Shown here one piece after another: positions 1 through 34,994 of a DNA stretch of 64,000 bases (positions within the stretch are counted from its first letter, which is position 1; the number at the start of each line of letters is the position of its first letter). The stretch covers positions 34,936-98,935 of IMG/VR virus record IMGVR_UViG_3300028603_000025. The stretch is one strand, 5' to 3'. The position numbers and the translations under genes were made by a program. The DNA comes from a virus. Lineage: Duplodnaviria; Caudoviricetes. The notes below the pieces were generated by a model. It made no database searches and was not told the DNA's origin. It worked only from the letters and a program-made list of their open reading frames with translations.

Positions 1-234
1 AATCAGATACTTATTTGGATTTAAATGACGAACTTGAATAGGAGAAAAAGATGTTCTGGTTACTAATGAGTATTCTGATTGCATTGAATATCTATTACCG
101 ACCCCGGTAATATGGAATGCGACGGAAATTCATGGGCAGGTCTGATATTTTCAGGCGTGGTCATGCTGAGTATAATTGGAGTCATCGTTGCGGTGACGTA
201 TAGAATAATCAAAGATTTTGTAAAGGAGGATTAA

Positions 235-492
235 GTGAATATTTTTTCAGAAGATTTAGTAAAACGGATTCGTGGGGGTTTCGTCGAATATTCGGAATCG
301 TGTATTCGTACCGAAGCGGAAAAAGACCTTCAGAAAGAAATCATCGCGAAACTTTCTGAAGAGACCATGATTGATAAGGCTATCCTGAAGAAGCTTGTTG
401 CCATGTATCATAAACAGAACGGGGAGCAAGAAAAAGAGGCTTTCGACGAGATTTATCATATGTACGAGTCGATTCGAGGCTATCGAGGCTAA
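235..492 (+). CDS. dsbA: T4 DsbA-like double-stranded DNA binding protein
   Basis: 85 aa helical protein with EAEKDLQKEII...KKLVAMYHKQN...EIYHMYE, resembling T4 DsbA; AGGAGG RBS and GTG start. Confidence 0.75.
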   Translation: MNIFSEDLVKRIRGGFVEYSESCIRTEAEKDLQKEIIAKLSEETMIDKAILKKLVAMYHKQNGEQEKEAFDEIYHMYESIRGYRG

Positions 493-494
493 TC

Positions 495-1277
495 ATGGAT
501 ATCGTGACCGCGTTTACCGATATAGGAAGAGGAACTTGGAGTCATAATCCTTGGGGCGTACCGGTCCAGTCGTACATTCCTCGAACTGTTGATACTTACA
601 TCGAGCGGTTCGAGAGAATGGCGAGCCTGAAGAATCATATCACATGCTTCGTGGATTCGGACCTCTTGTTAAGACTTCCAAAGAACAGTAATATCGAATA
701 TCATGATATACGGGAAGTTACCGGACACGAATGGAACGTCGCGGTTCTGGATAAGATAAAGGGAGTTCATTCTTCGGACTGGTGGATTAGTCGTTTCCGT
801 AACGATGCTTCTCCTGAACGATGGAACTCTGATTATGTGTTCATCAACTGGATGAAGTCTCAGTTCTTGATAAAGGTGTTCCGGGATAAATACTGTCTAG
901 AAACTACCTTTGCTTGGCTTGATTTCGGATACTTCCGGACCGAACCAAAAACTGACTTCCTGACTTATCAGATTCCAGAAGGAAAGGAGCTGGTATTTTT
1001 CTCTAACGGAAAGACGAAACATGAAATAAACGAAGTCTCTCCGATTGATGCGGTCATGTCAGGAGAAGTATTCATTCAGGGATGTCATGTAATCGGTACA
1101 TCAGTAGGCTTCAGGTCATTGGGAGTTGCATCTTATGATTATCTTGATACTCTTGTTAATATCGGACTGATTGATGATGACCAGACCATGCTTCTGATGG
1201 CCTATAAAGGATTGCATGAAATGATTCATCTTCAGTATAATTCATCAACTAACTGGTTTGGGGTGTTTGCGAAATGA
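495..1277 (+). CDS. HtrL/YibB-family putative glycosyltransferase
   Basis: IVTAFTDIGRG-W, RTVDTYIERF, AWLDFGY and GLIDDDQTMLL motifs typical of HtrL_YibB. Confidence 0.8.
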   Translation: MDIVTAFTDIGRGTWSHNPWGVPVQSYIPRTVDTYIERFERMASLKNHITCFVDSDLLLRLPKNSNIEYHDIREVTGHEWNVAVLDKIKGVHSSDWWISRFRNDASPERWNSDYVFINWMKSQFLIKVFRDKYCLETTFAWLDFGYFRTEPKTDFLTYQIPEGKELVFFSNGKTKHEINEVSPIDAVMSGEVFIQGCHVIGTSVGFRSLGVASYDYLDTLVNIGLIDDDQTMLLMAYKGLHEMIHLQYNSSTNWFGVFAK

Positions 1278-1996
1278 AACTATTTTTACCACATTCCGGG
1301 AATCTGGGAGATACATCAGCTATTCTTCCTTCGATTTCCGGTCATTACAAAGATACCGGAAGAAAGATAACTCTTATCCTACGGGAGAAGATGCGTCAGT
1401 TCGTTGGTTTACAGGAACTGTATGAGGCTCAGCCCGGAATCAAGAAGGTATATTTTGAGACCGACGGCATTGAGCCGAATATATCGATATGCCTTTCAAA
1501 CGAATTTGTTCACATAGACCATCGTCCTGTAGAGACTAATCGTTATGCTATCAACTTTTCCCGGATATTTAATACGAGCTGTGACGATGATTTTGAGTTG
1601 GTTATTCCTGAGAAATATCGTGGTCTGAAATTTCCGGAAACCGAAGACAAGCAAATTGCGTGCGACAGAGTCGAATTTGGAAGCTGTGATAAAAGGCGTA
1701 AGTTTAATATCCTTAATGAGTTCAAAGACGAACTCTTTTTCATTGACGTAGCAAAACCTCTGGGATATAATCTTGCCTTGATTAAAGATTCTCCTGATTA
1801 TATTCTAGGGACGTTTACCGGTATAGCAGTTTTGGTCGATCTGATGTGGAAAGAACAGATTCTGATTTACCCGAACGACTTGATACACTGGGACGGATCA
1901 AAGTCTAAGCAAGAACTGTTTGAACGTCATTTCTATACGAATCGGAGAAGCGAATGGATGATAATGGAGGATTATCTACGTGAAATTAAGCAGTAG
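1274..1996 (+). CDS. putative GT-B fold glycosyltransferase (GT9 heptosyltransferase-like)
   Basis: N-terminal HSGNLGD (cf. GT9 xxGD motif) and C-terminal LIKDSPDYILGTFTGIAVL (cf. GT9 'L...a.l.ig.DSG..HLA'); overlaps the upstream stop. Confidence 0.5.
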   Translation: MKLFLPHSGNLGDTSAILPSISGHYKDTGRKITLILREKMRQFVGLQELYEAQPGIKKVYFETDGIEPNISICLSNEFVHIDHRPVETNRYAINFSRIFNTSCDDDFELVIPEKYRGLKFPETEDKQIACDRVEFGSCDKRRKFNILNEFKDELFFIDVAKPLGYNLALIKDSPDYILGTFTGIAVLVDLMWKEQILIYPNDLIHWDGSKSKQELFERHFYTNRRSEWMIMEDYLREIKQ

Positions 1997-2657
1997 GACA
2001 AAATCAATTCTCAAGAGCTTTTCGGGAATAAATCAGTCGATTGTTATCATGCCTGGTAATACGATAACGACTCAGGATGAAGCCGGGATTCTTTACGGAA
2101 TGGCACAGGTAGAAGAATCATTTGAGCATGAAATGAGGATATACCAGCTCCCGACCCTTCTTAACATGATGGATTCGTTAGAAGACGTCGATCTGGATAT
2201 TGGGGACATGGACGTGACGGTTCATGGTTCTCGAGGAAAGTACCGGTATCAATACTGCGCCCCAAACATACTCAAATACAGGTCTCCTTGGAACAAAGAA
2301 GATATCGTTGAGGAACAGATATTTACGTGTGATTTCCTGTCAGAGGACTTTCGTGCCCTGACCAAGGCTTCTTCTATTACTGGGATAAACCAGATATGTA
2401 TCTATACCAAGGACGGGGACGTTCTGTTATCTCTACATGATAAGAAGGCAGAAGGTAATTCGTTCAAGACTGTTCTTGGAAAGTCCGATGATGAGTTTTG
2501 CGTCTGGGCGAAAACTGATAATTTGAAATTGCTCCCAGATGATTATAAAATGAGTGTTAATAGGCGAGAAGGCAAGACCAGAATCGTTTCGTTCCTTTCT
2601 TTTTCCGGAGATAATTTGGATTATCTCTTGTCGTGTGACCCATCATCAAAGGTATAG
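1980..2657 (+). CDS. gp45: DNA polymerase sliding clamp
   Basis: MKLSSRTKSILKSFSGINQSI, IYQLPTLL and NLKLLPDDY match T4-like gp45; directly upstream of the clamp loader. Confidence 0.93.
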   Translation: MKLSSRTKSILKSFSGINQSIVIMPGNTITTQDEAGILYGMAQVEESFEHEMRIYQLPTLLNMMDSLEDVDLDIGDMDVTVHGSRGKYRYQYCAPNILKYRSPWNKEDIVEEQIFTCDFLSEDFRALTKASSITGINQICIYTKDGDVLLSLHDKKAEGNSFKTVLGKSDDEFCVWAKTDNLKLLPDDYKMSVNRREGKTRIVSFLSFSGDNLDYLLSCDPSSKV

Positions 2658-2659
2658 AG

Positions 2660-3577
2660 ATGATTTTAAACGAGAAATACAGACCATCCAGCATCGAAGA
2701 ATGTATTCTGCCTAAGTATATCAAAGACGGATTCAGTTCGATGGTAAAGAAAGGTGAAATGCAGCACTTGTTGTTATCTGGTGATAAGGGAATGGGAAAG
2801 ACGTCCGTGGCTATAGCGTTATGTAATGACCTTGATTCAGAGTATCTTCTGATTAATGCATCGTTACATAACGGTATAGATACGTTAAGAACAACTATTC
2901 TTGATTTTGCTTCGACCATGTCTATGGACGGCAACATGAAGACTATTATCATGGACGAGGCAGATAGATTATCGGCGTCTGCTCAGGACGGCCTTAGGGG
3001 ATTCATTGAGGAATTTTCTTCAAACTGTAAGTTCATCATGACCGCTAACTTCCCGAACCGTATATCATCCCCTCTTCGGGAATCGAGGCTGATTGAGATA
3101 GAATTCAAGATTTCCGAAGAAGAGAGAGTTGATATACAGAAACAGATGTTTGTTCGATGTATGGACATTCTGGGGAAAGAAGGAATATCCTTTAAGAAAG
3201 ATATACTTGCTACTCTGATTAAACGTTATTATCCTGATATGCGTAGGATAATCAATACGATGCAATATCATTCTCGTTCAGGAGTCTTGGAAATTACTTC
3301 TTTAAGTGATTCTGATGAAGAACAGGTTGCGTATATCAAGAGGGTAATCAAGTCGAACGATTTTGTCCGAATTCGAGAATGGGCAAACGATAACTCAAAA
3401 GCTGACCATAGTATTTTATTACAGAACATCTATTCAGTGGCAGGCGAGATATTTAACGGACAGGCTTTATCCGCAAGTATAGTGATGATATCAGACTATC
3501 AGGATAAGCTATATAGAGCAGTTAACCCTGAGATTACTCTTTCTGCGTTAATGGTTGAACTAGGACAGTTGACATAA
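2660..3577 (+). CDS. gp44: clamp loader large subunit (AAA+)
   Basis: EKYRP, Walker A GDKGMGKT, INAS, IIMDEAD, AQDGLRGFIEEFSSNC. Confidence 0.96.
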   Translation: MILNEKYRPSSIEECILPKYIKDGFSSMVKKGEMQHLLLSGDKGMGKTSVAIALCNDLDSEYLLINASLHNGIDTLRTTILDFASTMSMDGNMKTIIMDEADRLSASAQDGLRGFIEEFSSNCKFIMTANFPNRISSPLRESRLIEIEFKISEEERVDIQKQMFVRCMDILGKEGISFKKDILATLIKRYYPDMRRIINTMQYHSRSGVLEITSLSDSDEEQVAYIKRVIKSNDFVRIREWANDNSKADHSILLQNIYSVAGEIFNGQALSASIVMISDYQDKLYRAVNPEITLSALMVELGQLT

Positions 3578-3579
3578 TC

Positions 3580-3963
3580 ATGGGACCGTTTGATGTAATC
3601 GATTCGTTAAGGAAAGGAGAGGAATGGAAGCCCGAATTCAAAGCCGCATATTCTCCGTTCCTGACAAATAAATACTTCAGTAATGATAAAAAATACTTGT
3701 TTGTTTCGTCGATAGCAGATACAATTGTCGATTCTGAGATGAACTATAAGTTTTGGCTTGGGTTAGTTGATAAGAAGTCAAGACGTGTTCCTTGGATAAA
3801 GAACAAAAAAGAGTCAGAAGAGCTGTTGAGTATTTCTGAATACTATAAAGTAAGTCTGTTAAAGGCTAAAGAGTATTCAAAATTGTTGAGTAACGAAGAT
3901 AAGTTGTTGATTTTAAATATAATTAAGGAGAAGGAAAATGAGTCTGGAACAGTTTTTTTATGA
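3580..3963 (+). CDS. gp62: clamp loader small subunit
   Basis: YSPFLTNKYFS and ISEYYKVSLLKAKEYSKLL; lies between gp44 and regA. Confidence 0.88.
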   Translation: MGPFDVIDSLRKGEEWKPEFKAAYSPFLTNKYFSNDKKYLFVSSIADTIVDSEMNYKFWLGLVDKKSRRVPWIKNKKESEELLSISEYYKVSLLKAKEYSKLLSNEDKLLILNIIKEKENESGTVFL

Positions 3964-4396
3964 TGACCTGGAATTGCCCGATGATTACCATTCGATTGAA
4001 GTTGAAATTGATACGAACTCGTTCCTGAAGGTGAGGGAAACGCTGCAACGTGTCGGATTGGCTTCGCGGTCAAGAGATGACCAAGGACGTAAAACGTTAT
4101 GGCAAAGCTGCCATGTTCTACACAAACAAGGCAAATATTACATCGTCCATTTCAAAGAGCTGTTTCTGTTAGATGGGCATCGCGCTGACTTGACTCAGGA
4201 CGATTTAGTCCGTCGTAATATGATTGCCGAATTGCTCGAGAAATGGGGACTGTTGAAAATTATCGATAAAGAAGTCACCTACGAAAACCAAGTGTTTCTG
4301 AAAGTGATTCCATTCCGGGATAAATCAAACTGGAATTTCCAGAAGAAATATACACTTCGTTCAGATAAGAAATACGAGGCTTCCCAACGTGCTTGA
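3938..4396 (+). CDS. regA: translational repressor RegA
   Basis: FLKVRETLQRVGLAS and LWQSCHVLHKQGKYYIVHFKELFLLDG. Confidence 0.97.
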   Translation: MSLEQFFYDDLELPDDYHSIEVEIDTNSFLKVRETLQRVGLASRSRDDQGRKTLWQSCHVLHKQGKYYIVHFKELFLLDGHRADLTQDDLVRRNMIAELLEKWGLLKIIDKEVTYENQVFLKVIPFRDKSNWNFQKKYTLRSDKKYEASQRA

Positions 4397-4913
4397 TACC
4401 AAGAGACGTTTCTTTATTGACCTTGACCATACGGTCGCAGACTTTAACGGAACGTTTCTATCTCATTTCGGAAAAGGGCTATCTGAGTCTGGGCTGTATA
4501 TGACGAACGAAGACTGGGATTTAGTTAACTCAGAGAAGAATTTCTATCTCAGGTTAACTAAATTCGAATACGCGGATGAACTGGTATCCGAAATCGTTGA
4601 TATGTTTGGTTATGACCGAGTCTTCTTTCTAACCTCAAGTCCTCCTGAATACGAAGGCAATGCTTATCAGGATAAGGTTCTCTGGGTAAGGAATAATATC
4701 CGGTTCAATCTTCCGGTAGTATTCAACAATCAGAATTTCGGAAAGGGTATGTTTGTCGAGAACGGAATCAATGATATACTGTTGGACGATAAACAGAAAT
4801 GCATTCTGGACTGGAGAAGCCAGGGCGGAACCGGTATTCTGTTTGAGCAGAATATGGGATATGATTTATCATGGTTAAGATGTTTTGATTACAGGAGTCT
4901 TACGAATGAGTGA
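4389..4913 (+). CDS. HAD-family 5'(3')-deoxyribonucleotidase-like phosphatase
   Basis: FIDLDHTVADF (DxD), LTSSP, DKVLW, ILLDD and WRSQGGTGILF. Confidence 0.85.
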   Translation: MLDTKRRFFIDLDHTVADFNGTFLSHFGKGLSESGLYMTNEDWDLVNSEKNFYLRLTKFEYADELVSEIVDMFGYDRVFFLTSSPPEYEGNAYQDKVLWVRNNIRFNLPVVFNNQNFGKGMFVENGINDILLDDKQKCILDWRSQGGTGILFEQNMGYDLSWLRCFDYRSLTNE

Positions 4914-5667
4914 TAAGAAGCTTACCGTGGTTATTCCGACCACGTTATCTCCTGACGTATATGATTTACTGGATAACCTGAAAGGAAACGTTCCTGACCA
5001 GACTCTGATTTATCTGGTGATAGATGGTCAGGAACACCTTGACGAAGATTCAAAGATAAAGATAGCGTCGGCCCGAGCCAGATTTCAGGAACGGAACGGA
5101 GTTGAATTATATGAGATAGTTCTTCCTTTCTCTATCGGGAAGGGAGGATGGTACGGTCATAGAGCAATAGCAGGCTTTGCTCATATGATAAATACTCCGT
5201 ATGTTACGTTCATTGACCAGGATAACTTGGTTGATGCGTTTCATTTCGTGACTCTTTTAGAACTGCTTGAGAAATACGAAGACCTTCCGTTTGCTTATTC
5301 TCATCGAACCATCATCGATAAACAGGGCCGTGACATATGTCTTGACGAATGTGAATCGTTGGGATATAAGCCTATCATGGGTAATGAACAGAACGGCTAT
5401 CTGGTTGATACCTCGTCGTGGGTATATAGAAGACAGTTCATTGAACAGAACGGACATATCTGGCACCATGGGTGGGGAGCAGACCGAAGGTTTACTATGG
5501 CAGTTCGTAATGGGGTCGGTCCAGAAATGATGGAGAAAGCATGTACCAAACTCCCGTCATTATTATACAGGGTAGCAGGAAACGCAAATTCAGTGACCCC
5601 TGAATTCTTTATAACCGGAAACTCAAAAATTAAACTTCTGGAGAACAAAAATGTCAGTCCTGATTAG
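4906..5667 (+). CDS. family 2 (GT-A) glycosyltransferase
   Basis: LTVVIPT, LVIDG, FIDQDN (DxD), VDTSS and GWGADRRF; start moved to the ATG at 4906 behind an AGGAG RBS. Confidence 0.85.
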   Translation: MSDKKLTVVIPTTLSPDVYDLLDNLKGNVPDQTLIYLVIDGQEHLDEDSKIKIASARARFQERNGVELYEIVLPFSIGKGGWYGHRAIAGFAHMINTPYVTFIDQDNLVDAFHFVTLLELLEKYEDLPFAYSHRTIIDKQGRDICLDECESLGYKPIMGNEQNGYLVDTSSWVYRRQFIEQNGHIWHHGWGADRRFTMAVRNGVGPEMMEKACTKLPSLLYRVAGNANSVTPEFFITGNSKIKLLENKNVSPD

Positions 5668-5866
5668 AGCAGAAGATGCACGCAAAAAGGCTTTACGATT
5701 CATTGATTCAAACTTCAAACAGTTGTTGTTTAACGCTATAGAGAACGGAGATCTGTTTCTCATGATTTCGGAACCATACTGGCCATCTGAAGAATTGTTA
5801 GTAGAACTGGACAATCTCGGATACTCTATTTATCAGGACGGAGATACCCTGGAGATAAGCTGGTGA
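5651..5866 (+). CDS. hypothetical protein
   Basis: 71 aa ORF with GGAG RBS, overlapping both neighbours. Confidence 0.6.
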   Translation: MSVLIRAEDARKKALRFIDSNFKQLLFNAIENGDLFLMISEPYWPSEELLVELDNLGYSIYQDGDTLEISW

Positions 5867-6693
5867 TAATCATTACCGGAGTCGATGGTTTTATCGGAGC
5901 ATATGCCGCCAATACCTTCAAGAATGCAGGATATCGCGTTCTTGGGTTTGGTCAGAACTCGGTCAAGTCAGTAGGATTCTATGTAGATAGATATAAGACT
6001 GATATAAAAGCCATCCTCCATTTTGGAGCAATATCGTCAACCGATTCCACGAACCAAGAAGAAGTATTCAAATGGAACGTGGAATCGACTATAAATGATA
6101 TCCTTTATCCGGCTCAGAAGTATAATATTCCTATACATTTTGCTTCTTCGGCGTCTATATACGGTAACGTATCAAAGTATTGGTTTACAGAAACCGATGA
6201 GCCGAATCCGAACAGTATATATGCCGAATCAAAACTGACGTGCGAAACCGTTCTGAGTCTGTACGAGAAAGCATTCATATTCCGATATTTCAACGTCTAT
6301 GCCGATAATCCCAGATGGGAATGGCATAAACATCAGCCTTCTCCCCATACAGGATTCGTTAAGCAGCTATCCACCCAAGGAATAATAAGGCTGTTTGATG
6401 GATCAGAGAATATCTATCGAGATTTCGTTAACGTCGTAGACGTCGTGGAATATCATCTTGAATTCGTCAAGAGGTCTCATAAACCGGGCATCTATAACGT
6501 CGGATCAGGAAGTTTAACCTCGTTTCAGGAAGTAGCTATTGACGTCTTAAATAAGTTCGGGTATTCTCCTGTTCTTATAAGAGAGATAGCGTTTCCGGAA
6601 AAGCTGAAGAAATACTATCAGTATCGGACGCTTGCAAATATAAGTAAGATAACACAGGAGATTCTATATGATTTTGGTAACAGGCTGCTTTGA
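5863..6693 (+). CDS. hldD: ADP-L-glycero-D-manno-heptose 6-epimerase-like (extended SDR)
   Basis: IIITGVDGFIG, HFGAISST, ASSASIYG, YAESK (YxxxK), RYFNVY, RDFV and YQYRTLANISK. Confidence 0.88.
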   Translation: MIIITGVDGFIGAYAANTFKNAGYRVLGFGQNSVKSVGFYVDRYKTDIKAILHFGAISSTDSTNQEEVFKWNVESTINDILYPAQKYNIPIHFASSASIYGNVSKYWFTETDEPNPNSIYAESKLTCETVLSLYEKAFIFRYFNVYADNPRWEWHKHQPSPHTGFVKQLSTQGIIRLFDGSENIYRDFVNVVDVVEYHLEFVKRSHKPGIYNVGSGSLTSFQEVAIDVLNKFGYSPVLIREIAFPEKLKKYYQYRTLANISKITQEILYDFGNRLL

Positions 6694-7081
6694 TATTATT
6701 CACCGAGGCCATATTGAACTATTCGAGTACGCAAATGTCTTAGCTAAGAGAGGAGAATATTCGGAACCGATATTCGTCTTGGTTGACTCCGATGCTCGAG
6801 TAAAACGCAATAAAGGAATCGAGAGACCTGTAAATAATCAGGACGATAGGAGATATGTCTTATCCGGAATGAAAGGACTTCAGGCGTCACGGATAATGAT
6901 TTTCGATACTGATGAAGAACTAGTTGACGTCTGTGGAGATTTTAATCCCTTGAGAATAGTCGGCTCAGATTACAAAGGCCGCACGATTATCGGGGGAGAA
7001 CACTGTAGGAAAATCGAATATTTTGAAAGACTTGAAAATTATTCAACCACAAAAACAATCAATGAACTTACTAAAGCCTGA
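6668..7081 (+). CDS. heptose-1-phosphate nucleotidyltransferase (HldE/RfaE domain II)
   Basis: TGCFDIIHRGH (HxGH), DSDARVKRNKGIERPVN, VGSDY and YSTT. Confidence 0.88.
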   Translation: MILVTGCFDIIHRGHIELFEYANVLAKRGEYSEPIFVLVDSDARVKRNKGIERPVNNQDDRRYVLSGMKGLQASRIMIFDTDEELVDVCGDFNPLRIVGSDYKGRTIIGGEHCRKIEYFERLENYSTTKTINELTKA

Positions 7082-7916
7082 AGAAGTATTAATAATCGGG
7101 GATACCTGCCGGGACCATAATCTAATCGGGGAAGTATCCGGTTTGTCGCCCGAAGCCCCGATTCCTATTTTAACCAATCCGCGACATGACCTGAGTCTAG
7201 GTATGTCGTACAACTTTGTCCGTAATCTGGAAAGGTTCTTTAAAGGTGTTCCGATTCCTGACGAGAACCTGTTGTTTAGCAAACATCCTTCTGATATCTG
7301 GAACTACATGGATGAACGTTCCGGGCAGAAACTGTTACGAGTAGACAAGATTAATAAACTGTTTCCTGAAGTGTTAACATTTGATAAGGTGTCTCAAAGG
7401 GTTCATGATAAAATCAAGGTAATCATTGCGATTGACTACGATACCGGGTTCCTGACCAGTTCGCTACTTTCTGAGATAGCGGTTCAGTACGGTTCCTCAA
7501 AGTATCTGTATATTGATACCCGGAAACCGAATCTGACCCACCTTCAGGGATGGAAGATAAAGATTAACGATATCGAGGCCGCAAAAGCAAGGAAGGCAAC
7601 CAAGGGATTCGATGACCTTGATTTAATCGTGACCCACGGTAAAGAAGGTTCAGAAACACATGACCTGTTTGTTCATCAGAAGAATAAAGTAGATGCGCGG
7701 GACGTAACCGGGTGCGGAGAAACCTGGTTAGCTACCTTCATTTATATGTACCATTCTGATGATATCGTTAAGGCGCTGACTTGTGGTCAGCATGATTTGG
7801 AAGAAGTAATGAACCTCGCCAATCTTTCAGCATCGATTACTGCATCACACGTAGGAACGTATGCGCCAACCGTAAAAGAAATAGTTGATTTGTATTTGAA
7901 GACCAAAGGAGTTTAA
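7062..7916 (+). CDS. heptose-7-phosphate kinase (HldE/RfaE domain I, PfkB family)
   Basis: LIIGD, LSPEAPIPI, QKLLRVD, DYDTGFL, KIN and DVTGCGETW (cf. DVTGAGDT). Confidence 0.85.
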   Translation: MNLLKPEEVLIIGDTCRDHNLIGEVSGLSPEAPIPILTNPRHDLSLGMSYNFVRNLERFFKGVPIPDENLLFSKHPSDIWNYMDERSGQKLLRVDKINKLFPEVLTFDKVSQRVHDKIKVIIAIDYDTGFLTSSLLSEIAVQYGSSKYLYIDTRKPNLTHLQGWKIKINDIEAAKARKATKGFDDLDLIVTHGKEGSETHDLFVHQKNKVDARDVTGCGETWLATFIYMYHSDDIVKALTCGQHDLEEVMNLANLSASITASHVGTYAPTVKEIVDLYLKTKGV

Positions 7917-7917
7917 A

Positions 7918-8286
7918 ATGACCAGACTGACAGGATTCCAGCAGAAAGGATGGGGACACGAGATGATTTTCGTGAGCAACGATAAGTACTGCGGAAAGAA
8001 ACTCGTATTCCGGAAAGGTGGAAAATTTTCCATGCACTTTCACCGCGAGAAAGTTGAAACCTGGATTGTTCTATCAGGAAAGTTTCAGCTTGAAATCATT
8101 AATACCAAGAATGCATGTAAGAAAGTCATTCTGTTGGAAAAAGAGTCAGTCTGGACAAACGAAGCCCTTGTTCCACATCAACTGACCTGTATTGAGGAAG
8201 GAACGATACTTGAGATAAGTACCCCGGATAGCGTGGAAGACAACTACCGAGTAATCCCCGGCGATTCGCAGGCGATTGAAGTATGA
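7918..8286 (+). CDS. cupin, sugar-phosphate isomerase-like
   Basis: KGWGHE, YCGKKL, FSMHFHREKVETW and EISTPDSVEDNYRVIPGDSQ. Confidence 0.8.
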   Translation: MTRLTGFQQKGWGHEMIFVSNDKYCGKKLVFRKGGKFSMHFHREKVETWIVLSGKFQLEIINTKNACKKVILLEKESVWTNEALVPHQLTCIEEGTILEISTPDSVEDNYRVIPGDSQAIEV

Positions 8287-8594
8287 GAAACGAATTCAGG
8301 TTAAGCATTATTCTTATCGCCCTGATATGTTTCATTGTCTATTCAAACAAGTCGATGGCCGCAGACGTATACATTCACGGAGGAGTCGGGGTTCCGCGCC
8401 TTCAGTTCCAGTTCCAATACGGATATCCGTACGGAATTCCTCCGCAAATGTATATCTATCCAAACCAGAGATACCGAGGATATCAGGGAAACCGTTATAT
8501 TCAGCGTCACGGACTTGAATATCAACACCAAAGACGTTATAATCGTCATCAACCCTCCTGCGTATGGCATCGAGGACACTATCACTGCGACTAA
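8283..8594 (+). CDS. hypothetical secreted protein (Tyr/Arg/His/Gln-rich)
   Basis: N-terminal hydrophobic segment ending SMA-A, followed by a low-complexity mature region. Confidence 0.55.
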   Translation: MRNEFRLSIILIALICFIVYSNKSMAADVYIHGGVGVPRLQFQFQYGYPYGIPPQMYIYPNQRYRGYQGNRYIQRHGLEYQHQRRYNRHQPSCVWHRGHYHCD

Positions 8595-8609
8595 TCACCA
8601 TGGGAATAA

Positions 8610-11195
8610 ATGAACCTTTACACAGATGTATTCCAGTATAAAAACAAACTCCTGGTAAGAAATATCGAGGGTCTGAAGGAAGTTAAATTCAGACCTTCTT
8701 TATTCATACCTACCAAGAACGAAACAGAATATACGAACATGTTCGGGAAGAATCTCCGACAGGTTCAGTTCGATAAGATATCTGACATGCGGGATTACCG
8801 GAAACAGTATCAGGATATTCAGGATATCCATGGTAACTATAGCGCAGTCACCCAGTATCTTCATTCGACGTATCGTTCTGATATCGAATATGACTTGACG
8901 AAAGTCATTATCTATTCGATTGATATCGAGACCACGACAGAGAAAGGATTTCCGAACCCAGAACTCCCGGAAGAAGAGATTAACGTTATTACCATGACCG
9001 ATGTAGTCACGGATAAGGCTATCACATTAACGACCTTGGATGCTGACTTGAATCAGATAAAGAAGAAGTATCCATTTGCCAAGGTAATGGTCATGGAGAA
9101 CGAAGTTGAGTTAATCAAGAAGTTCATCTTCCTGTTCTCGCGTAGATATCCACATATCCTGACATCCTATAACGGGGAAGGCTTTGATATTCCGTACCTG
9201 ACTAATCGTGCCCTGGGAATCGTACCAGAAGCCTATTTTAAACGTTTATCGCCGTGGGGACTGGTCCGTGCATCAGAAATCCTTGATCCGATGACCAAGG
9301 AGAAGAAAGTAAATTATGAATGGATTGGAATTCAGTTAATCGATTACCTTCCTTTGTATAAGAAGTTCTCCCAGGCGTCCCCGGAAGATTACAAGTTGGA
9401 TACCGTGGCAAATCATGAACTGGGAGAGAACAAGGTAGAGAATCCGTACGACACGTTTCAGGAGTTCTATGAGAAATCTCCGACCCTGTTCGTTGAATAT
9501 AATATCAAGGATGCTTTGCTTATTAACAGACTGGACCGGAAACGTAAGCTACTGGCTCAGATTGTTGATACCGCATATTACGCAAAGGTTAACTACATAG
9601 ACGTGTTCAAACCGATGCGGGTATGGGATTCATTGATTCACGACTATTTGTATCAACAGAACGTAATCGTCCATAACCCCCCGAAAAAGAAACTTACCGA
9701 GAAGATTATCGGGGCCGCGGTAAAGGAACCGGTACCGGGGATATACGACTGGACAGTATCGTTTGATGCAAAGGCACTATATCCCAGCATAGCACGGTCG
9801 TTAAATATGTCTCCCGAAACAGTAGTGAATACCGAATCGATATTTGAGAACGCTATCGACGGAATAGACAGACTGTTAGAAGGATACGAAGAAACCGAGG
9901 ACCTGAAGAAGAATAACTACTCGTTATCCGCGAACGGATTCTATTTCAGGCGAGATAAGATGGGACTGTTTCCGACCATGTTCTCTCGAATAGGAAAACG
10001 TCGTGACGACGCAAAGAACCGAATGCTTGAACTAGATGCTTTCATACAGGCTAATCCGGACAAGGCCACTGATGAAATGAGGAACGAGAAGGAAACCATG
10101 AATTCAAAACAGGGTTCTTCTAAGATTCTGAACAACTCAGGTTATGGCGTTATGGCAGCCGAACACTTCCGGTTCTTTGATACCAGGATATCAGAAGGAA
10201 TCACGGCTACCGGACAGTTTGTTATCAAGACAGCAGAACAGTTCCTGAATAAAAGACTGAACGAATACTTTAAGACCGAAGGAATCGATTACGTTCTTTA
10301 CTCGGATACTGACTCGTTGTTTGTTAAGTTCGGGGGAGTTCTTTCGGATAAGGTAAAGAAGGAAAAAAGTAGCCAGGAAATCACCAACTTCCTTGATAAG
10401 TTTGCAAAGACCTATCTTGCCGATGTTCTGGAAGAGGCCATGAACGATATCGGGACCCGGTTAAACGTGTTCGAGAATCATCTTTACTTTAAACGTGAGA
10501 TGATTAATCAGAATCATCTGATGTATAAGAAGAAGAAGTATGCGTGTGCCTTGATTGATTCAGAAGGCGTAAGATATCAGAATCCAGAAATCAAGGTAAA
10601 GGGAATCGAGATTGTCAGAAGAACAACCCCGATGGTGGTGAGGAAGTATCTTAAGACCAGCGTAAACAAGATGCTGATAGAGGGATATGATTCGTTTCTG
10701 GAATACTTTGAAGAAATAAGGGATTCGTGGAATGACCACGATTACAAGGATATCCTTCTGGGAATAGGTAATAACGGAATGGACGTTTATTCGACTACAG
10801 ACGATAAAGGAGAAGATGGGATAGAAGAAAAAGAGAACGAATCTGGACTTGATATGATTGAAAAGTATCAGGATGATGGTAAAGTATATAAGAAAGGTAC
10901 GCCGTATCATATCAAGGCTTCTTTGATTTATAATCATAAAATCAAAGAGTTAGGCTTGGATAAGAAATATCCTTTGATACAGAACAGGGATAAGGTAAAG
11001 ATAGCATTCCTGAAGATGCCGAACAAGCTGATGGTTGATACGATAGCCTTTCCGGATAAGTTGCCAGTAGAATTTGAAGTAGAAAGTCTGATTGATTACG
11101 AAAGGCATTTTGAGAAGACCTATCTGAGTACTATTAAAAGGCTATCTGATGCTATCGGATGGAAGTTAGAAAGAAGTTATTCATTATTTGATTAG
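8610..11195 (+). CDS. gp43: family B DNA polymerase
   Basis: Exonuclease motifs DIET, YNGEGFDIPY and YNIKD; polymerase motifs SFDAKALYPSI, KILNNSGYG, YSDTDS and KKKY; C-terminal clamp-binding SLFD. Confidence 0.98.
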   Translation: MNLYTDVFQYKNKLLVRNIEGLKEVKFRPSLFIPTKNETEYTNMFGKNLRQVQFDKISDMRDYRKQYQDIQDIHGNYSAVTQYLHSTYRSDIEYDLTKVIIYSIDIETTTEKGFPNPELPEEEINVITMTDVVTDKAITLTTLDADLNQIKKKYPFAKVMVMENEVELIKKFIFLFSRRYPHILTSYNGEGFDIPYLTNRALGIVPEAYFKRLSPWGLVRASEILDPMTKEKKVNYEWIGIQLIDYLPLYKKFSQASPEDYKLDTVANHELGENKVENPYDTFQEFYEKSPTLFVEYNIKDALLINRLDRKRKLLAQIVDTAYYAKVNYIDVFKPMRVWDSLIHDYLYQQNVIVHNPPKKKLTEKIIGAAVKEPVPGIYDWTVSFDAKALYPSIARSLNMSPETVVNTESIFENAIDGIDRLLEGYEETEDLKKNNYSLSANGFYFRRDKMGLFPTMFSRIGKRRDDAKNRMLELDAFIQANPDKATDEMRNEKETMNSKQGSSKILNNSGYGVMAAEHFRFFDTRISEGITATGQFVIKTAEQFLNKRLNEYFKTEGIDYVLYSDTDSLFVKFGGVLSDKVKKEKSSQEITNFLDKFAKTYLADVLEEAMNDIGTRLNVFENHLYFKREMINQNHLMYKKKKYACALIDSEGVRYQNPEIKVKGIEIVRRTTPMVVRKYLKTSVNKMLIEGYDSFLEYFEEIRDSWNDHDYKDILLGIGNNGMDVYSTTDDKGEDGIEEKENESGLDMIEKYQDDGKVYKKGTPYHIKASLIYNHKIKELGLDKKYPLIQNRDKVKIAFLKMPNKLMVDTIAFPDKLPVEFEVESLIDYERHFEKTYLSTIKRLSDAIGWKLERSYSLFD

Positions 11196-11203
11196 GAGAA
11201 AGA

Positions 11204-12112
11204 ATGTCGATTCTTGACAAGATTAAAAAGAATAGTACCATTGGTTTAACATCAACGATTTCAGAATCCACGGTGCTTCTGGATAAGTTTGAAATACCCA
11301 CGAGCATACCTGCAATGAACATAGCATTGTCAGGTAGTCTTAAAGGAGGAATCACGGGAGGAACGACGATATTTGCAGGGGAGTCAAAACGATTCAAATC
11401 GATGTATTCGTTGTTCTTGGTATCAGAATACATGAAGTCGTTTCCGGAATCGGTCTGTATCTTCTATGACTCAGAGTTCGGAACTCCATTAAGCTATTTT
11501 GAGAAGATGGGAATCGACCTTGACAGGGTAGTTCATTGTCCGATTACTGATATCGACCAACTGAAGCATGACATAGTAGTTCAGCTAACAGAACTCGAAA
11601 GGAAAGACAGAGTAGTAGTCATGATTGATAGTATCGGAAATCTAGCCAGTAAGAAAGAACTGGATGACTCGATAGAAGGAAAATCTGCAGCAGACTTTAC
11701 CCGTGCAAAAACGTTAAAGGCGATGTTTAGACAGATTACGCCTATTCTGGCTGTTAAGGATATTCCGCTGATAGCGATTAATCATACCTATAAGGAAATC
11801 GGAATGTTTCCCAAGGATATACAATCGGGGGGTTGTCTGGAAGGGGGGACTAAGATAATCATGTCAGACGGCAGCACAAAAGCTATCGAAGACGTAAAGG
11901 TAGGCGACATGGTTAAAACTCTCGGGGGTGAAAATGAAGTATATGCGGTCTGGGACCCTGAAACTTTAGACGAGGGTGAACCTGAATGTTATCGGGTAAC
12001 ATTTGAAGACGGCAACTCTTACACCTGCTCCGCCAATCACAGATATAAAATCGGAGAGGAATGGGTTAAGGCAAAAGACCTTGTTGAAAATGACGATGTT
12101 GTTGCCATCTAG
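11204..12112 (+). CDS. uvsX: UvsX recombinase N-terminal part (210 aa) fused to a split-intein N-fragment (92 aa)
   Basis: AGESKRFKS, FYDSEFG, IDSIGNLASKKE and INHTY...QSGG, then CLEGGTKI... Hint-N sequence to the stop. Confidence 0.95.
   Translation: MSILDKIKKNSTIGLTSTISESTVLLDKFEIPTSIPAMNIALSGSLKGGITGGTTIFAGESKRFKSMYSLFLVSEYMKSFPESVCIFYDSEFGTPLSYFEKMGIDLDRVVHCPITDIDQLKHDIVVQLTELERKDRVVVMIDSIGNLASKKELDDSIEGKSAADFTRAKTLKAMFRQITPILAVKDIPLIAINHTYKEIGMFPKDIQSGGCLEGGTKIIMSDGSTKAIEDVKVGDMVKTLGGENEVYAVWDPETLDEGEPECYRVTFEDGNSYTCSANHRYKIGEEWVKAKDLVENDDVVAI
11834..12109 (+). mobile_element. split intein N-fragment (IntN) in UvsX
   Basis: Block A CLEGGTKIIMSDG..KAIEDVKVGD.V, block B CSANHR and WVKAKDL; acidic. 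Confidence 0.92.
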
Positions 12113-13385
12113 GGAAATAGCGCAGGAAATCTCCAGATTCTATATGGAAACTTTCGGGGTGGAAATTAAACCGACCCGAAAGTTTGTCTTAGTTGGTAAA
12201 GGGATGATTGAACTCGAAAACAAAACGTTAAATGACGTAATTCAGCGACATTTCGAGTTCATCAAGGCCAGGAAAAATTGTCCTGTCTCATGGATGGCGA
12301 ATTACGGGGCCTCCTACGAAGATGCGTTAATCTATAGTGAATCCCCAAATGGATATAGGGTTTGTCTTAATTGTGGAGTGATTTATAAATCGGAGAACAA
12401 CAGGTCGGGCTGCTGCTCCGAGAAATGTAGAGCAGAAAGGAAGACGCATACGTTTGTTCCTGAATATAGAGCCAAGAAAAACGGAATACCTATTCAACAA
12501 GCTATCGACGAAGTAAATGCCATCATGGCAAAGAAGGATAGTAAATCGTCGAAGTATTTCGAGAGTAAAGGATTCAGTCCGGAAGAGGCCAAGAAACTTT
12601 CTTCCGAAACACAGGCGAAAAGGAGCAAACGCACCATTGAGTATTTTACTTCGCGGGGATGTTCTTACGAAGAAGCCGTGGAGGAAAGAGCAAAGTACCA
12701 AAAAGATAAAGCAGATATCAGGTCTGCTAAGTATACCAAAGAAGAGCTTAGGATAATGAATCCCTGGAGCGATGAATTTTGGATGAACAAGGGATACTCG
12801 TTAGCAGAGGCAAAGGAAATAAAGTCTGGGTTTTTTAAAAAAGGAGCTGATGCCTATCTCTCTTTGCCGAGAGGGGTGCGACTGTCGAACAACCATCTAC
12901 ATTATTCTTACTGGAAGAAAAGATTTCCTGATTCGTGGGAAGAGAAATACGCTGACCACATGAAGGAGATTTATCATAAATCAGGAAGAGGGGTGTCGTC
13001 GATAGCAAAGGAATTTTGTTATTCTTTGCATGGTAAATTTGACTTCTGTTCCAATGTGTACTATTATCCTGATGAATTTGGTAAGTTAATCAAGGAAAGC
13101 AAGAAGTACGTATTTTACGATTATGTTGATACGAGGAGAATGGTATGTGTAGAATTTAACGGAAACTGGTGGCATGCAAATCCGGAGACCTATTCCCCAG
13201 ATGATATTCTTATGGGAAAGACGGCTTCTGAAATCTGGAAAAGAGATGCAATCAAATTACAGACCATCGAAGATTTTGGATTTCGGACGTTCGTAGTCTG
13301 GGAAAAGGACTACAAGAAAAACAAAGAAGAAGTGATTCAAACCATTTACGAGGAGATTATTCTGCATGAAAATAGCAAAAATTGA
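12090..13385 (+). CDS. free-standing Vsr/DUF559-like (PD-(D/E)xK) homing endonuclease
   Basis: C-terminal YDYVD...VEFNGNWWH...RDAIK...GFRTFVVWEKD; Cys cluster CLNC...CCSEKC; repeated YFxSxG.S.EEA helices; lies between the two uvsX halves; start at ATG 12090 or 12096. Confidence 0.85.
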   Translation: MTMLLPSREIAQEISRFYMETFGVEIKPTRKFVLVGKGMIELENKTLNDVIQRHFEFIKARKNCPVSWMANYGASYEDALIYSESPNGYRVCLNCGVIYKSENNRSGCCSEKCRAERKTHTFVPEYRAKKNGIPIQQAIDEVNAIMAKKDSKSSKYFESKGFSPEEAKKLSSETQAKRSKRTIEYFTSRGCSYEEAVEERAKYQKDKADIRSAKYTKEELRIMNPWSDEFWMNKGYSLAEAKEIKSGFFKKGADAYLSLPRGVRLSNNHLHYSYWKKRFPDSWEEKYADHMKEIYHKSGRGVSSIAKEFCYSLHGKFDFCSNVYYYPDEFGKLIKESKKYVFYDYVDTRRMVCVEFNGNWWHANPETYSPDDILMGKTASEIWKRDAIKLQTIEDFGFRTFVVWEKDYKKNKEEVIQTIYEEIILHENSKN

Positions 13386-13470
13386 AAAGGTAGGTAAAAG
13401 AAAGGTTTATGATATATCAGTTAAGGAAGTGGAACATTACATTTTAGATAACGGGGTAGTGTCCCATAAC
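13366..13470 (+). mobile_element. split intein C-fragment (IntC) in UvsX
   Basis: Block F VYDISV and block G SHN, with Thr as the +1 residue; basic. Confidence 0.93.
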
Positions 13471-13842
13471 ACTTCTGTTCAATACAGCCCAAATTCGGTT
13501 TTCTTTGTCGGAAGAGAACAGGTTAAAGAAGGAACCCAGGTAGTCGGATACAAATTTAACCTTACGATAGAGAAATCCAGACGGGTGCGGGAGAAATCAA
13601 AACTACCAATTGAGGTATCATTTGAAGAAGGCATCAACAAATGGTCTTCCCTTCTGGATATCGCCCTTGAACTTGGTCTGGTAATCGCACCGACTAAAGG
13701 ATGGTATTCCCGGGTAATCGAAGGCGTGGTGGAAGAAAAGAAATGGCGGCGGAAGGATACAGATAATAACGATTTCTGGGATGTATTATTGGAGGACCCT
13801 GAATTTGAAGCAGGAATTAACAAACTGTATCGTTTAGAGTAA
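13366..13842 (+). CDS. uvsX: split-intein C-fragment (35 aa) fused to UvsX C-terminal part (123 aa)
   Basis: MKIAKIEKVGKRKVYDISV...NGVVSHN then TSVQYSPNSVFFVGREQ, EKSRRVREKS, GGI-like EGINKWS and PTKGWY; own GAGGAG RBS at 13350. Confidence 0.95.
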   Translation: MKIAKIEKVGKRKVYDISVKEVEHYILDNGVVSHNTSVQYSPNSVFFVGREQVKEGTQVVGYKFNLTIEKSRRVREKSKLPIEVSFEEGINKWSSLLDIALELGLVIAPTKGWYSRVIEGVVEEKKWRRKDTDNNDFWDVLLEDPEFEAGINKLYRLE

Positions 13843-34769: not shown

Positions 34770-34994
34770 ATGAGAAGAACCAAAGAACGCATGCCCAAGC
34801 AACCCGACGGAACCAAATACAACTGGGGCTATAACGACGGACTCAATGCATCATCAATGAAAAATCCGATTCATAGAAACTGGAAAGGAAAAGATGGAAT
34901 CCTTCGTCACTTTGATGAAGCCTATGTAAACGGATACATCGCCGGATATGCTAAGAGTACAGGAACTGTTCTGACTGTGCTGATTCAGGATTGA
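34770..34994 (+). CDS. hypothetical early protein
   Basis: AAAGGA RBS and ATG at 34770; YNWGYNDG...AYVNGYIAGY. Confidence 0.7.
   Translation: MRRTKERMPKQPDGTKYNWGYNDGLNASSMKNPIHRNWKGKDGILRHFDEAYVNGYIAGYAKSTGTVLTVLIQD

Follow-up and report, generated by a model that had tools for sequence, protein, structure and literature searches.

What is a nucleotide-sugar pathway with three glycosyltransferases doing among the replication genes of a T4-like phage, and onto what would its sugars be transferred: phage DNA, virion proteins or the host envelope? We addressed this question in a 64,000-nucleotide window (positions 34,936 to 98,935 of virus record IMGVR_UViG_3300028603_000025) and in the whole record, which at 98,935 bp covers 59% of the genome; the remaining 41% probably includes fibre genes.

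A sugar cassette interleaved with replisome genes

The plus strand from 235 to 8286 is a single gap-free gene array in the order dsbA, HtrL-like GT-A, mini GT9-like, gp45, gp44, gp62, regA, HAD, GT2, HldD-like, HldC-like, HldA-like and cupin, with gp43 next at 8610. Neighboring genes overlap by 4 to 26 nt or are separated by at most 2 nt throughout, and the cassette genes match their neighbors in GC and GC3. An independent contig, L085, has an identical gene order at 49 to 84% protein identity and a GC content of 34% (41% here), and a second, L005, keeps the dsbA-to-regA part. The arrangement therefore exceeds chance, and, because L085 keeps the order at such divergence, the block is inherited with the replisome. 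The genes are as follows:

235..492, plus strand: dsbA, T4-type dsDNA-binding transcription factor, first gene of the array (PF11126, E 5e-11; 84% identical in L085)
495..1277, plus strand: HtrL/YibB-family protein, predicted retaining GT-A-fold glycosyltransferase (PF09612, 85 bits versus a cut-off of 24)
1274..1996, plus strand: mini GT9-like protein (heptosyltransferase fold), 240 aa (AlphaFold model, VIA; start overlaps the HtrL stop, ATGA)
1980..2657, plus strand: gp45 sliding clamp (PF09116)
2660..3577, plus strand: gp44 clamp loader large subunit (PF21328, PF00004)
3580..3963, plus strand: gp62 clamp loader small subunit (weak PF16790 match, E 6e-4; kept in L085, where the gene call matches PF16790)
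3938..4396, plus strand: regA translational repressor (PF01818, E 2e-35)
4389..4913, plus strand: HAD-superfamily phosphatase, candidate heptose-1,7-bisphosphate 7-phosphatase (DxDxT motif; phrog_2643, E 2.5e-21)
4906..5667, plus strand: GT2-type (GT-A) glycosyltransferase, likely start ATG 4906 (ESM Atlas match to phage GT2 clusters)
5651..5866, plus strand: orf71, 71-aa acidic ORF, a doubtful part (not conserved in L085)
5863..6693, plus strand: HldD-like SDR epimerase, ADP-glycero-manno-heptose 6-epimerase type (TIGR02197, E 7e-44, 150 bits versus an equivalog cut-off of 274.6)
6668..7081, plus strand: HldC-like nucleotidyltransferase, HldE domain II type (rfaE_dom_II TIGR02199, E 4.5e-19, below cut-off; phrog_7878, E 4e-28)
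7023..7916, plus strand: HldA-like PfkB heptose-7-phosphate kinase, start TTG 7023 or ATG 7062 (rfaE_dom_I TIGR02198, E 4e-20, below cut-off)
7918..8286, plus strand: metal-site cupin (PMI-like), candidate sedoheptulose-7-P isomerase (PF01050, E 1.5e-5; PF07883; phrog_7851, E 3e-37)
8283..8594, plus strand: orf103, 103-aa low-complexity basic ORF, probably outside the system (absent in L085)
8610..11195, plus strand: gp43 DNA polymerase, downstream border of the cassette (PF00136, PF03104; 75% identical in L085)

An earlier sequence-only reading had described a nucleotide-heptose pathway and three glycosyltransferases interleaved with replisome genes. Family matches and the gap-free array bear this out, and every gene it named is present where it was placed and holds its identity, including the GT9-like one, which was recognized from a structure model. 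The two remaining ORFs are weaker candidates: orf71 has no family match in Pfam, PHROG or NCBIfam and no tblastn match in L085, and orf103 likewise has no family match in our searches, its place being taken in L085 by only a 31-aa ORF and, in the gene call of an identical ENA contig, by a minus-strand ORF.

Expression together with replication had also been suggested. A motif search for the T4-type late promoter TATAAATA found none within positions 1 to 11500; the motif is present upstream of structural genes. The tight gene coupling and this lack of a late promoter make co-expression with replication plausible, and judged from these sequence features the cassette would most likely be transcribed early or in the middle period, alongside the replisome genes. 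The regA-gp43 interval is variable, spanning 265 to 7115 bp in 43 other T4-like loci, where its contents are unrelated (an ATP-grasp enzyme, peroxiredoxin, metallophosphatases, dCMP deaminase, and a GT1 with an FkbM methylase). Embedding in the replisome is thus no evidence for a DNA target. The cassette is most likely an accessory module that, in this divergent T4-like phage, occupies two plastic slots of the replication gene cluster, dsbA-gp45 and regA-gp43.

Predicted nucleotide-heptose pathway

In bacteria, the ADP-L-glycero-beta-D-manno-heptose pathway comprises GmhA, HldE or HldA plus HldC, GmhB and HldD, together with WaaC/WaaF. Our kinase, nucleotidyltransferase and epimerase are 22 to 32% identical to E. 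coli HldE/HldD with motifs kept, and a GT9-fold transferase occurs in both systems. The kinase aligns to HldE residues 13 to 300, has SPEAPIP (SPEAPxP) and DVTGCGE motifs, and matches rfaE_dom_I best; the nucleotidyltransferase is 32% identical to HldE residues 342 to 444 (domain II), carries HxGH, and matches rfaE_dom_II best. The epimerase is 32% identical to E. coli HldD over its full length, with SSA, YxxxK and HK residues aligned, and 68% identical in L085. In contrast to the bacterial pathway, there is no GmhA or GmhB orthologue here but a cupin and an unrelated HAD instead. The kinase, nucleotidyltransferase and epimerase of the pathway read earlier stand; the HAD is not GmhB-like and GmhA is missing.

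The cupin has the full HxH...E...H motif and is 74% identical in L085. It co-occurs with the kinase: 35 phage records contain the cupin and 31 the kinase, and these two sets of cyanophage and marine-virus records largely coincide. A GmhA (SIS) gene was found neither here nor in the complete cassette-bearing cyanophages S-T4 and S-CAM3, making three cassette-bearing genomes that lack it, and the cupin probably supplies the GmhA step. The HAD has a counterpart at the corresponding place in L085 (55% identity) and matches neither a Pfam nor an NCBIfam family at E ≤ 0.01. BLASTP detected no similarity between it and E. coli GmhB; it is not a GmhB orthologue. Its nearest family, phrog_2643, is annotated as 5'-3' deoxyribonucleotidase, and it may instead serve nucleotide metabolism.

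We propose that the five enzymes downstream of regA would convert sedoheptulose-7-phosphate to an ADP-heptose-type nucleotide sugar. The cupin would act first, as a PMI-like aldose-ketose isomerase replacing GmhA; the PfkB kinase, as its family indicates, would then phosphorylate C1; the HAD phosphatase would remove the 7-phosphate; the HldC-like enzyme, again by family, would attach AMP; and the HldD-like enzyme, by family and catalytic residues, would epimerize C6.

All three Hld-like proteins score below the NCBIfam equivalog cut-offs, a further difference from the bacterial systems, and the product could therefore be a variant of heptose or a different sugar. Such a product might arise if the cupin and SDR modified an NDP-heptose (small cupins also act as NDP-sugar epimerases or ketoisomerases, and ours has a WbuC-family match at E 1e-5), or by the isomerase-kinase-HAD-nucleotidyltransferase logic of phage arabinose activation, which leads to UDP-arabinose in RB69 and DLP3 (PMC13326640). 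Against this, the heptose family clearly outscores all others for each of the three enzymes (HldD model E 7e-44 versus GalE E 5e-19), the HldE-specific SPEAPxP and the HldD HK residue pair are retained, and the same operon holds a GT9-fold transferase; we consider a nucleotide sugar other than ADP-L,D-heptose quite unlikely.

Three glycosyltransferases

The HtrL-like protein, 52% identical in L085 with DDDQ and WxDFGY motifs invariant, gave a structure model (pLDDT 92.9) with VIA Z 12 to 13 to the GT-A enzymes LARGE1, alpha3GalT and BoGT6a. The E. coli HtrL gene adjoins hldD-waaF-waaC, and ours likewise neighbors heptose genes. Its partner, the mini GT9-like protein, had no match in a Pfam search, and its identity therefore required a structure model (pLDDT 94.7), for which VIA Z was 13.8 to WaaC, 13.1 to 3tov, 11.9 to WaaF and 10.7 to TibC, with the next family at Z 7. 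Residues G12-D13 align to WaaC G12-D13. WaaC/WaaF are about 320 aa long, whereas ours has 240 aa, a reduced N-terminal acceptor domain, and Phe at the position of WaaC D261; a WaaC-type LPS-core acceptor is accordingly not implied. The mini GT9 family is small (46 cluster representatives, with Atlas look-alike clusters 98 to 100% viral), and homologues adjoin an HtrL gene in three distinct genomic settings.

The GT2 ORF lacks a Pfam match at E ≤ 0.01 and matches phage GT2 clusters in the ESM Atlas (feature score 0.99, TM 0.86), where the record begins at residue 8 of the ORF from 4885. It has a DxD-like DQD motif, is 59% identical in L085, and has homologues in T4-like genomes without the kinase. 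A GT25 lies upstream of the cassette, as do two proteins with weak matches, one GT9-like (373 aa) and one Anp1-like (GT-A-type). The heptosyltransferase is likely to be the mini GT9-like enzyme, which is always adjacent to the HtrL-like GT-A enzyme; further sugars would be attached by HtrL and GT2.

DNA, virion proteins or host envelope as acceptor

DNA had been named first among the possible targets. In such a reading heptose, alone or as an oligosaccharide, would be placed on a modified phage-DNA base during replication, after the model of T4 gp42 with alpha/beta-GT or of methylase/TET/GT clusters that heptosylate 5hmC. Both precedents cited for it are real. In T4, gene 42 and b-gt lie in the 43-uvsX interval, with a-gt close to 47. 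They are located within the replication gene cluster, as is our cassette, which is translationally coupled to replisome genes. Phage 5hmC sugar clusters consist of a methylase, a TET-like 5mYOX and a GT, and contig 53, through HAD/APH, cytidylyltransferase and GT-B genes, makes Hep- and di-Hep-5hmC; GT-A-fold DNA transferases exist too (bioRxiv 10.1101/2023.12.21.572611). Our cassette resembles these clusters in phage sugar activation (a HAD and a cytidylyltransferase-like enzyme), in its glycosyltransferases and in heptose as the sugar. Unlike them and T4, however, it has a PfkB rather than an APH kinase and a GT-B GT9-like rather than a beta-GT-like enzyme, and the mini GT9 resembles WaaC rather than T4 alpha-GT (Z 4.5). 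The absence of a hydroxymethylase from the window is confirmed and extends to the whole record: across the 98,935 bp there is no ThyA/gp42-family gene (dCMP hydroxymethylase), ThyX, C5 methylase or T4 a-gt/b-gt/42 homologue, and no TET/JBP or 5mYOX above the cut-off; the sole 2OG oxygenase is generic (PF13640; Tet_JBP 17 bits versus a cut-off of 34.9). That 59% of the genome is covered leaves some room for the DNA reading, but the complete S-T4 and S-CAM3 genomes, which have the module, likewise encode neither a ThyA-family enzyme nor a TET scoring above cut-off. The unrelated contents of the regA-gp43 slot elsewhere count against it as well, as do, weakly, three DNA methyltransferase systems in the phage, which fit methylation as DNA protection. 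A DNA target is thus not supported; we judge it very unlikely, and the least likely of the three.

O-heptosylation of fibre or capsid proteins from ADP-heptose, in the manner of TibC/Aah, is also unlikely in our assessment. The autotransporter heptosyltransferases share with the mini GT9 a GT9-related fold and the expected ADP-heptose donor, and A64R, the capsid glycosyltransferase of PBCV-1, is among the matches to the HtrL model (VIA Z 11.7). WaaC nevertheless outscores TibC for the mini GT9, which is also much shorter than TibC/Aah (240 versus about 400 aa). The 99-kb fragment shows neither a serine-rich or AIDA-like acceptor nor, among its ORFs of at least 150 aa, a Ser/Thr-run protein, the lone Ser-rich frame being antisense within a 1400-aa ORF, and the cassette, which has no late promoter, lies amid early replication genes.

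The closest comparison is with the "LPS gene" clusters of T4-like cyanophages (P-SSM2, P-SSM5, S-CAM1, S-CAM3, S-T4, S-SSM7, S-SM2, Bellamy, SynMITS9220M01) and with rfaE-bearing pelagimyophages. The cyanophage module is homologous to ours (kinase 28 to 35%, nucleotidyltransferase 34 to 40%, cupin 31 to 40%, epimerase 35% identity), and all these clusters share a split HldE, no SIS GmhA, several glycosyltransferases and a T4-like phage background (PMC1079782, PMC7378029, PMC7029224). In S-T4, S-CAM1/3, P-SSM2/5 and S-SSM7, the module lies in a hypervariable region among GT11/GT25/GT10 and tail-fibre genes, a setting that favors virion proteins as acceptor, whereas ours occupies the regA-gp43 interval and has an HtrL and mini-GT9 pair between dsbA and gp45 as its partner. 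The cyanophage HAD is small and capless (about 106 aa) and mis-annotated as "phosphoheptose isomerase"; ours is larger and of another subfamily.

The cyanophage clusters have been read as LPS or surface modification (PMC1079782; PMC7029224), and an envelope acceptor, the standing proposal for these homologous clusters of cyanomyophages and pelagimyophages, would by analogy be the most likely one here. The transferases are all of envelope-glycan types (GT9-fold, HtrL, GT2). Counting against an envelope acceptor, LPS remodelling benefits a lytic phage less than a temperate one.

Marine phages are already known to carry this gene set; new here are its placement in the replisome array and the conserved HtrL/mini-GT9 pair. 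Our best explanation, which we hold with about even confidence, is an early-expressed accessory glycosylation module whose putative acceptor is a host envelope glycoconjugate (LPS/LOS-core-like) that would be remodelled during infection.

Organization of the array and its genome

ORF calling and family searches delineated a single uninterrupted plus-strand array at positions 235 to 8286 of the window, in which adjacent genes either overlap by 4 to 26 nt or lie no more than 2 nt apart. Heptose-pathway and glycosyltransferase genes interleaved with replication genes had been read here from the bare sequence, and those gene calls are right: ORF calling, family searches and structure models all confirm the observation.

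Gene order of the array and its downstream flank (window coordinates)
235-8286, + strand, first half: dsbA, HtrL/YibB-family gene, 240-aa ORF, gp45, gp44, gp62, regA
235-8286, + strand, second half: HAD, 253/260-aa ORF, 71-aa ORF, HldD-like SDR epimerase, cytidylyltransferase-fold enzyme, PfkB kinase, cupin
8283-8594, + strand: doubtful 103-aa ORF after the cupin
From 8610: gp43

The 103-aa ORF has a hydrophobic N terminus and a Tyr/Gln/Arg-rich tail; in the gene call of the identical ENA contig it is replaced by an 89-aa ORF on the minus strand (8332-8601). Neither of these lies between cupin and gp43 in L085, a Logan contig from a relative, and we found no conservation of the 71-aa and 103-aa ORFs. 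Scans for sigma-70 promoters and terminators returned sites no more commonly than in shuffled sequence. The late-promoter motif TATAAATA, which directly precedes several structural genes in other parts of the window, is absent from window positions 1 to 11500, and it is from motifs and gene packing that we infer the timing of expression.

The phage is a divergent T4-like virus, and its gp43 is 34 to 36% identical to the nearest phage polymerases, those of cyanomyophages. Megablast with 12 kb as the query found no match in the phage collection, and IMG/VR searches for related loci with the kinase, the epimerase, the 240-aa ORF, alignment profile A1 and a gp43 alignment gave zero relatives; regA was the sole query that brought in related loci. 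The window forms the final 64 kb of a 98,935-bp IMG/VR record, which is about 59% complete by CheckV, with about 41% of the genome outside the record. ENA assembly ERZ27247346 holds a longer contig of the same phage (k141_548259; 133,704 bp), which encodes a 100% identical HtrL protein and, by coordinate arithmetic, reaches about 34.7 kb further upstream; genes missing from the record could lie in this additional sequence.

Several other features of the window were recorded. It carries a Dam-like D12 class DNA methyltransferase (13970-14869), a PF01555 N6/N4 DNA methylase adjoining nrdB (21662-22501), and an IS605 OrfB/TnpB-type gene (27319-28461, plus strand; PF01385, PF07282 Cas12f1-like TNB, HTH) flanked by genes for an RCC1-repeat protein and a neck protein. 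NrdA (17241-20468) contains an intein bearing a LAGLIDADG domain, and uvsX (11204-13842) is interrupted by Hint/intein pieces, and its two halves flank another ORF.

Hld-like enzymes and pathway completeness

The three Hld-like enzymes each find the corresponding heptose family as their best NCBIfam model, at scores below the equivalog cut-offs: TIGR02197 for the epimerase (E 7e-44; 150 bits, cut-off 274.6), TIGR02199 for the nucleotidyltransferase (E 4.5e-19; 69 bits, cut-off 181.5) and TIGR02198 for the kinase (E 4e-20; 72 bits, cut-off 345). Compared with E. coli K-12 HldD, the epimerase is 32% identical over its full length and about 35 residues shorter, and the SSA, YxxxK and HK positions are aligned; HldD enzymes are SDRs marked by GxxGxxG, a Ser/Tyr/Lys triad and a second catalytic lysine (K178 in E. 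coli). The nucleotidyltransferase is 32% identical to domain II of E. coli HldE (residues 342-444) and has HRGH at the HxGH motif. The kinase is 22% identical to HldE domain I across residues 13-300, SPEAPxP included; it keeps SPEAPIP, where the lid motif of the family is SPEAPVP, and reads DVTGCGE, with glutamate replacing the last aspartate of DxTGAGD.

The isomerase and phosphatase steps have no such clear counterparts. The SIS domain of GmhA (PF13580) has no match in the 98,935-bp record or in the complete genomes of the cyanophages S-T4 and S-CAM3. A cupin is always present where GmhA would be expected; that of the phage has a complete HxH...E...H metal motif, and its top-scoring Pfam family is the type II mannose-6-phosphate isomerase (PMI) domain. 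The conversion of fructose-6-phosphate to mannose-6-phosphate has its seven-carbon counterpart in the GmhA reaction, so a PMI-like cupin is a chemically sensible phosphoheptose isomerase, and the phage cupin may act as one in the place of GmhA. The HAD protein has a DxDxT motif, and its nearest family is phrog_2643, annotated as deoxyribonucleotidase. BLASTP detects no resemblance between it and E. coli GmhB, a capless histidinol-phosphatase-like HAD, and no Pfam or NCBIfam family matches it at E ≤ 0.01; it is not GmhB-like. Its conserved position makes it a candidate 7-phosphatase. Both the HAD and the cupin are assigned from sequence; no useful match came from searching PDB sequences with these two proteins, the GT2, alignment profile A1 or a 373-aa GT9-like protein encoded upstream.

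Three predicted glycosyltransferases, including a mini GT9-like protein

The 240-aa ORF has no Pfam match, GT9 (PF01075) included, and no PDB sequence match. Its family is small, with 46 cluster representatives among 1.8 billion proteins, and its closest ESM Atlas clusters are 98 to 100% viral. The hallmarks of GT9 enzymes are a GT-B fold, an N-terminal GD with the catalytic aspartate and a C-terminal DTG donor-binding motif. An AlphaFold model from a 31-sequence alignment (pLDDT 94.7) has GT9 enzymes as all its top structural matches: WaaC (Z 13.8 over 207 residues), a Veillonella GT9 (13.1), WaaF (11.9) and TibC (10.7); the score drops to Z 7 for the family after these and to Z 4.5 for T4 alpha-GT. 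Relative to WaaC, this mini GT9 has an N-terminal domain shorter by about 80 residues. Its invariant G12-D13 lines up with G12-D13 of WaaC in a MAFFT alignment, where its T182-G183 falls on D261-T262-G263, with D261 changed to Phe in the phage family; D13 and D261 are the key residues of WaaC. The BAHT protein heptosyltransferases (TibC/Aah) have a GT9-related fold with an iron-binding insertion, form dodecamers and act on serine-rich autotransporter acceptors; the match of the mini GT9 to TibC is below that to WaaC.

The HtrL-family protein scores 85.1 bits to PF09612, above the Pfam cut-off of 24.1 and below the NCBIfam YibB equivalog cut-offs. Its model (pLDDT 92.9) has a retaining GT-A fold and matches LARGE1, alpha-1,3-GalT and BoGT6a at Z 12 to 13 and PBCV-1 A64R at 11.7. 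The third ORF (253/260 aa) has no Pfam match at E ≤ 0.01, PF00535 included; ESM Atlas features (score 0.99) and a structural match (TM 0.86) point to a GT2, its Atlas neighbors are 93 to 100% PF00535, and it has a DQD motif. With the mini GT9 placed by its model, HtrL by Pfam and model and the GT2 by Atlas features, the count of three glycosyltransferases in the sequence-only reading therefore holds.

Genes for HtrL-like and mini GT9 proteins are adjacent, and often overlapping, in three unrelated contexts: the present lineage and loci L088 and L089, the former with a GT1 and a methyltransferase. In E. coli, htrL adjoins hldD-waaF-waaC. The arrangement suggests that the two genes work together in a heptose-linked unit.

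Conservation and relatives of the module

Gene order from dsbA to uvsX is exactly the same in L085 (34% GC, versus 41% in the phage), with protein identities of 49 to 84%, and L005, a second relative, keeps dsbA-HtrL-miniGT9-gp45-gp44-gp62-regA. In L085 conservation of the cassette genes (50 to 74% identity) is on a par with that of gp45 (49%) and gp44 (66%), and in the phage their GC and GC3 match those of neighboring genes. The block is old in the lineage and under purifying selection.

To our knowledge, heptose modules are widespread in phages (cyanomyophages, pelagimyophages and others), and a product or target has been demonstrated for none. Searches with the kinase and the cupin match 31 and 35 phage records, respectively; the records listed for the two, which are T4-like cyanophages and marine single-cell viruses, overlap for the most part. 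S-T4 and S-CAM3 carry a homologous nucleotidyltransferase, kinase, cupin and epimerase with GT11, GT25, GT10 and other transferases beside tail-fiber genes. Such "LPS gene" clusters were described for P-SSM2 in 2005 (PMC1079782), listed for SynMITS9220M01 (PMC7378029) and noted in pelagimyophages (PMC7029224), and by this homology the module is of a known kind. The recurrent heptose module is thus not new; what is new at this locus is its placement, the type of HAD and the HtrL and mini GT9 pair.

The cyanophage genes annotated as phosphoheptose isomerase (S-CAM3, L004:8743-9063; S-T4, L003:10557-10904) lack a SIS domain, and the small S-CAM3 protein is weakly HAD-like (PF25109, E 0.002). The annotation is therefore probably wrong, and the gene probably encodes the pathway phosphatase. 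Comparison ruled these proteins out as homologs of the 103-aa ORF, the cupin or the present HAD. The cupin next to the cyanophage gene is annotated as cysteine dioxygenase.

Possible targets of the predicted glycosylation system

Expression with replication and a target in DNA, virion proteins or host LPS had been proposed for this locus. Heptose genes and transferases do stand beside the replisome; the DNA heptosylation part of the proposal is unsupported. Modification of DNA would suit the conserved arrangement in which heptose-pathway and GT9/GT-A genes are translationally coupled to those of the replisome. The expected base-activating enzymes were not found in the 99 kb. The 98,935-bp record has no match to the ThyA/gp42 family (PF00303), to ThyX or to C5 methylase (PF00145), and no tblastn match at E < 0.1 to T4 42, a-gt or b-gt. 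A hydroxymethylase, TET or JBP elsewhere in the record would have filled this gap, and none scored above cut-off; the only Tet_JBP signal, of 17 bits (cut-off 34.9), fell on a PF13640 protein 14 kb upstream, a generic 2OG-Fe(II) oxygenase instead. Complete cyanophage genomes with the module (S-T4, S-CAM3) likewise contain no ThyA-family enzyme and no TET above cut-off. The phage differs from T4, where glucosylation uses gp42 with alpha- and beta-GT, in having homologs of neither in the 99-kb record. Heptose on 5hmC does have a genuine precedent, in a system that requires both a methylase and a TET-like enzyme (bioRxiv 10.1101/2023.12.21.572611). Of that hypermodification cluster (methylase, 5mYOX and GT), the C5 methylase and a TET above cut-off are absent from the 99 kb. 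The mini GT9 fold is WaaC-like, unlike the T4 DNA transferases. Protein charge was discarded as a marker of DNA transferases: the phage GTs have a pI of 5.6, T4 alpha-GT is also acidic (6.1), and beta-GT and WaaC are basic.

Nor is the position between regA and gp43 a DNA-modification address; it is a plastic slot. Across 43 other T4-like loci (L006-L084, from marine and freshwater phages) the distance between these genes ranges from 265 to 7115 bp, and the contents are unrelated accessory genes, among them a RimK-like ATP-grasp enzyme, dCMP deaminase, cytidylyltransferase, metallophosphatases, peroxiredoxin and GT1 with an FkbM methylase; the kinase is in none of the 10 larger relatives. T4 gene 43 itself has as neighbors not only 42/b-gt but also imm, which acts on the envelope. 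DNA heptosylation, with neither ThyA hydroxymethylase nor TET, would call for new attachment chemistry or a base-activating enzyme in the other 41% of the genome, and we regard it as improbable. If DNA were the target, this type of phage DNA modification would be new; present evidence is against it.

A second group of candidate glycosyltransferases lies upstream, on a piece of the same record (L002).

Second group of glycosyltransferase candidates
L002:8298-12824 (genome 25797-30323): 5-9 kb upstream of the array and upstream of dda-uvsY-uvsW

Its four members are a GT25, a 233-aa ORF lacking any family match, a 373-aa ORF (weak GT9, 13 bits) and a 293-aa ORF (weak Anp1-like, PF03452, GT-A-type); they are interspersed with genes for dCMP deaminase and a tail-tube-like protein, among replication genes. 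The assignable transferases are of LPS/LOS-core or surface-glycan types. Action on a host envelope glycan, remodeled during infection, is our best-supported guess, tentative as it is. Glycosylation of virion proteins seems rather unlikely: no protein with a Ser/Thr run was found among ORFs of at least 150 aa in the 99-kb fragment (41% of the genome lies outside it), and TATAAATA does not occur in 1-11500. We rank host-envelope remodeling first and virion glycosylation next.

Implications

The HtrL and mini GT9 pair is a compact candidate heptosyltransferase unit, in which a 240-aa GT9-fold enzyme is a form undescribed before. The locus also adds an independent case of a PMI-like cupin in the place expected for GmhA; if the cupin is a phosphoheptose isomerase, it would stand as a non-orthologous substitute within a pathway that has drawn study as a target of antibiotics and of innate immunity. 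Inheritance of the module with core replication genes points to a role that is required each time the phage infects.
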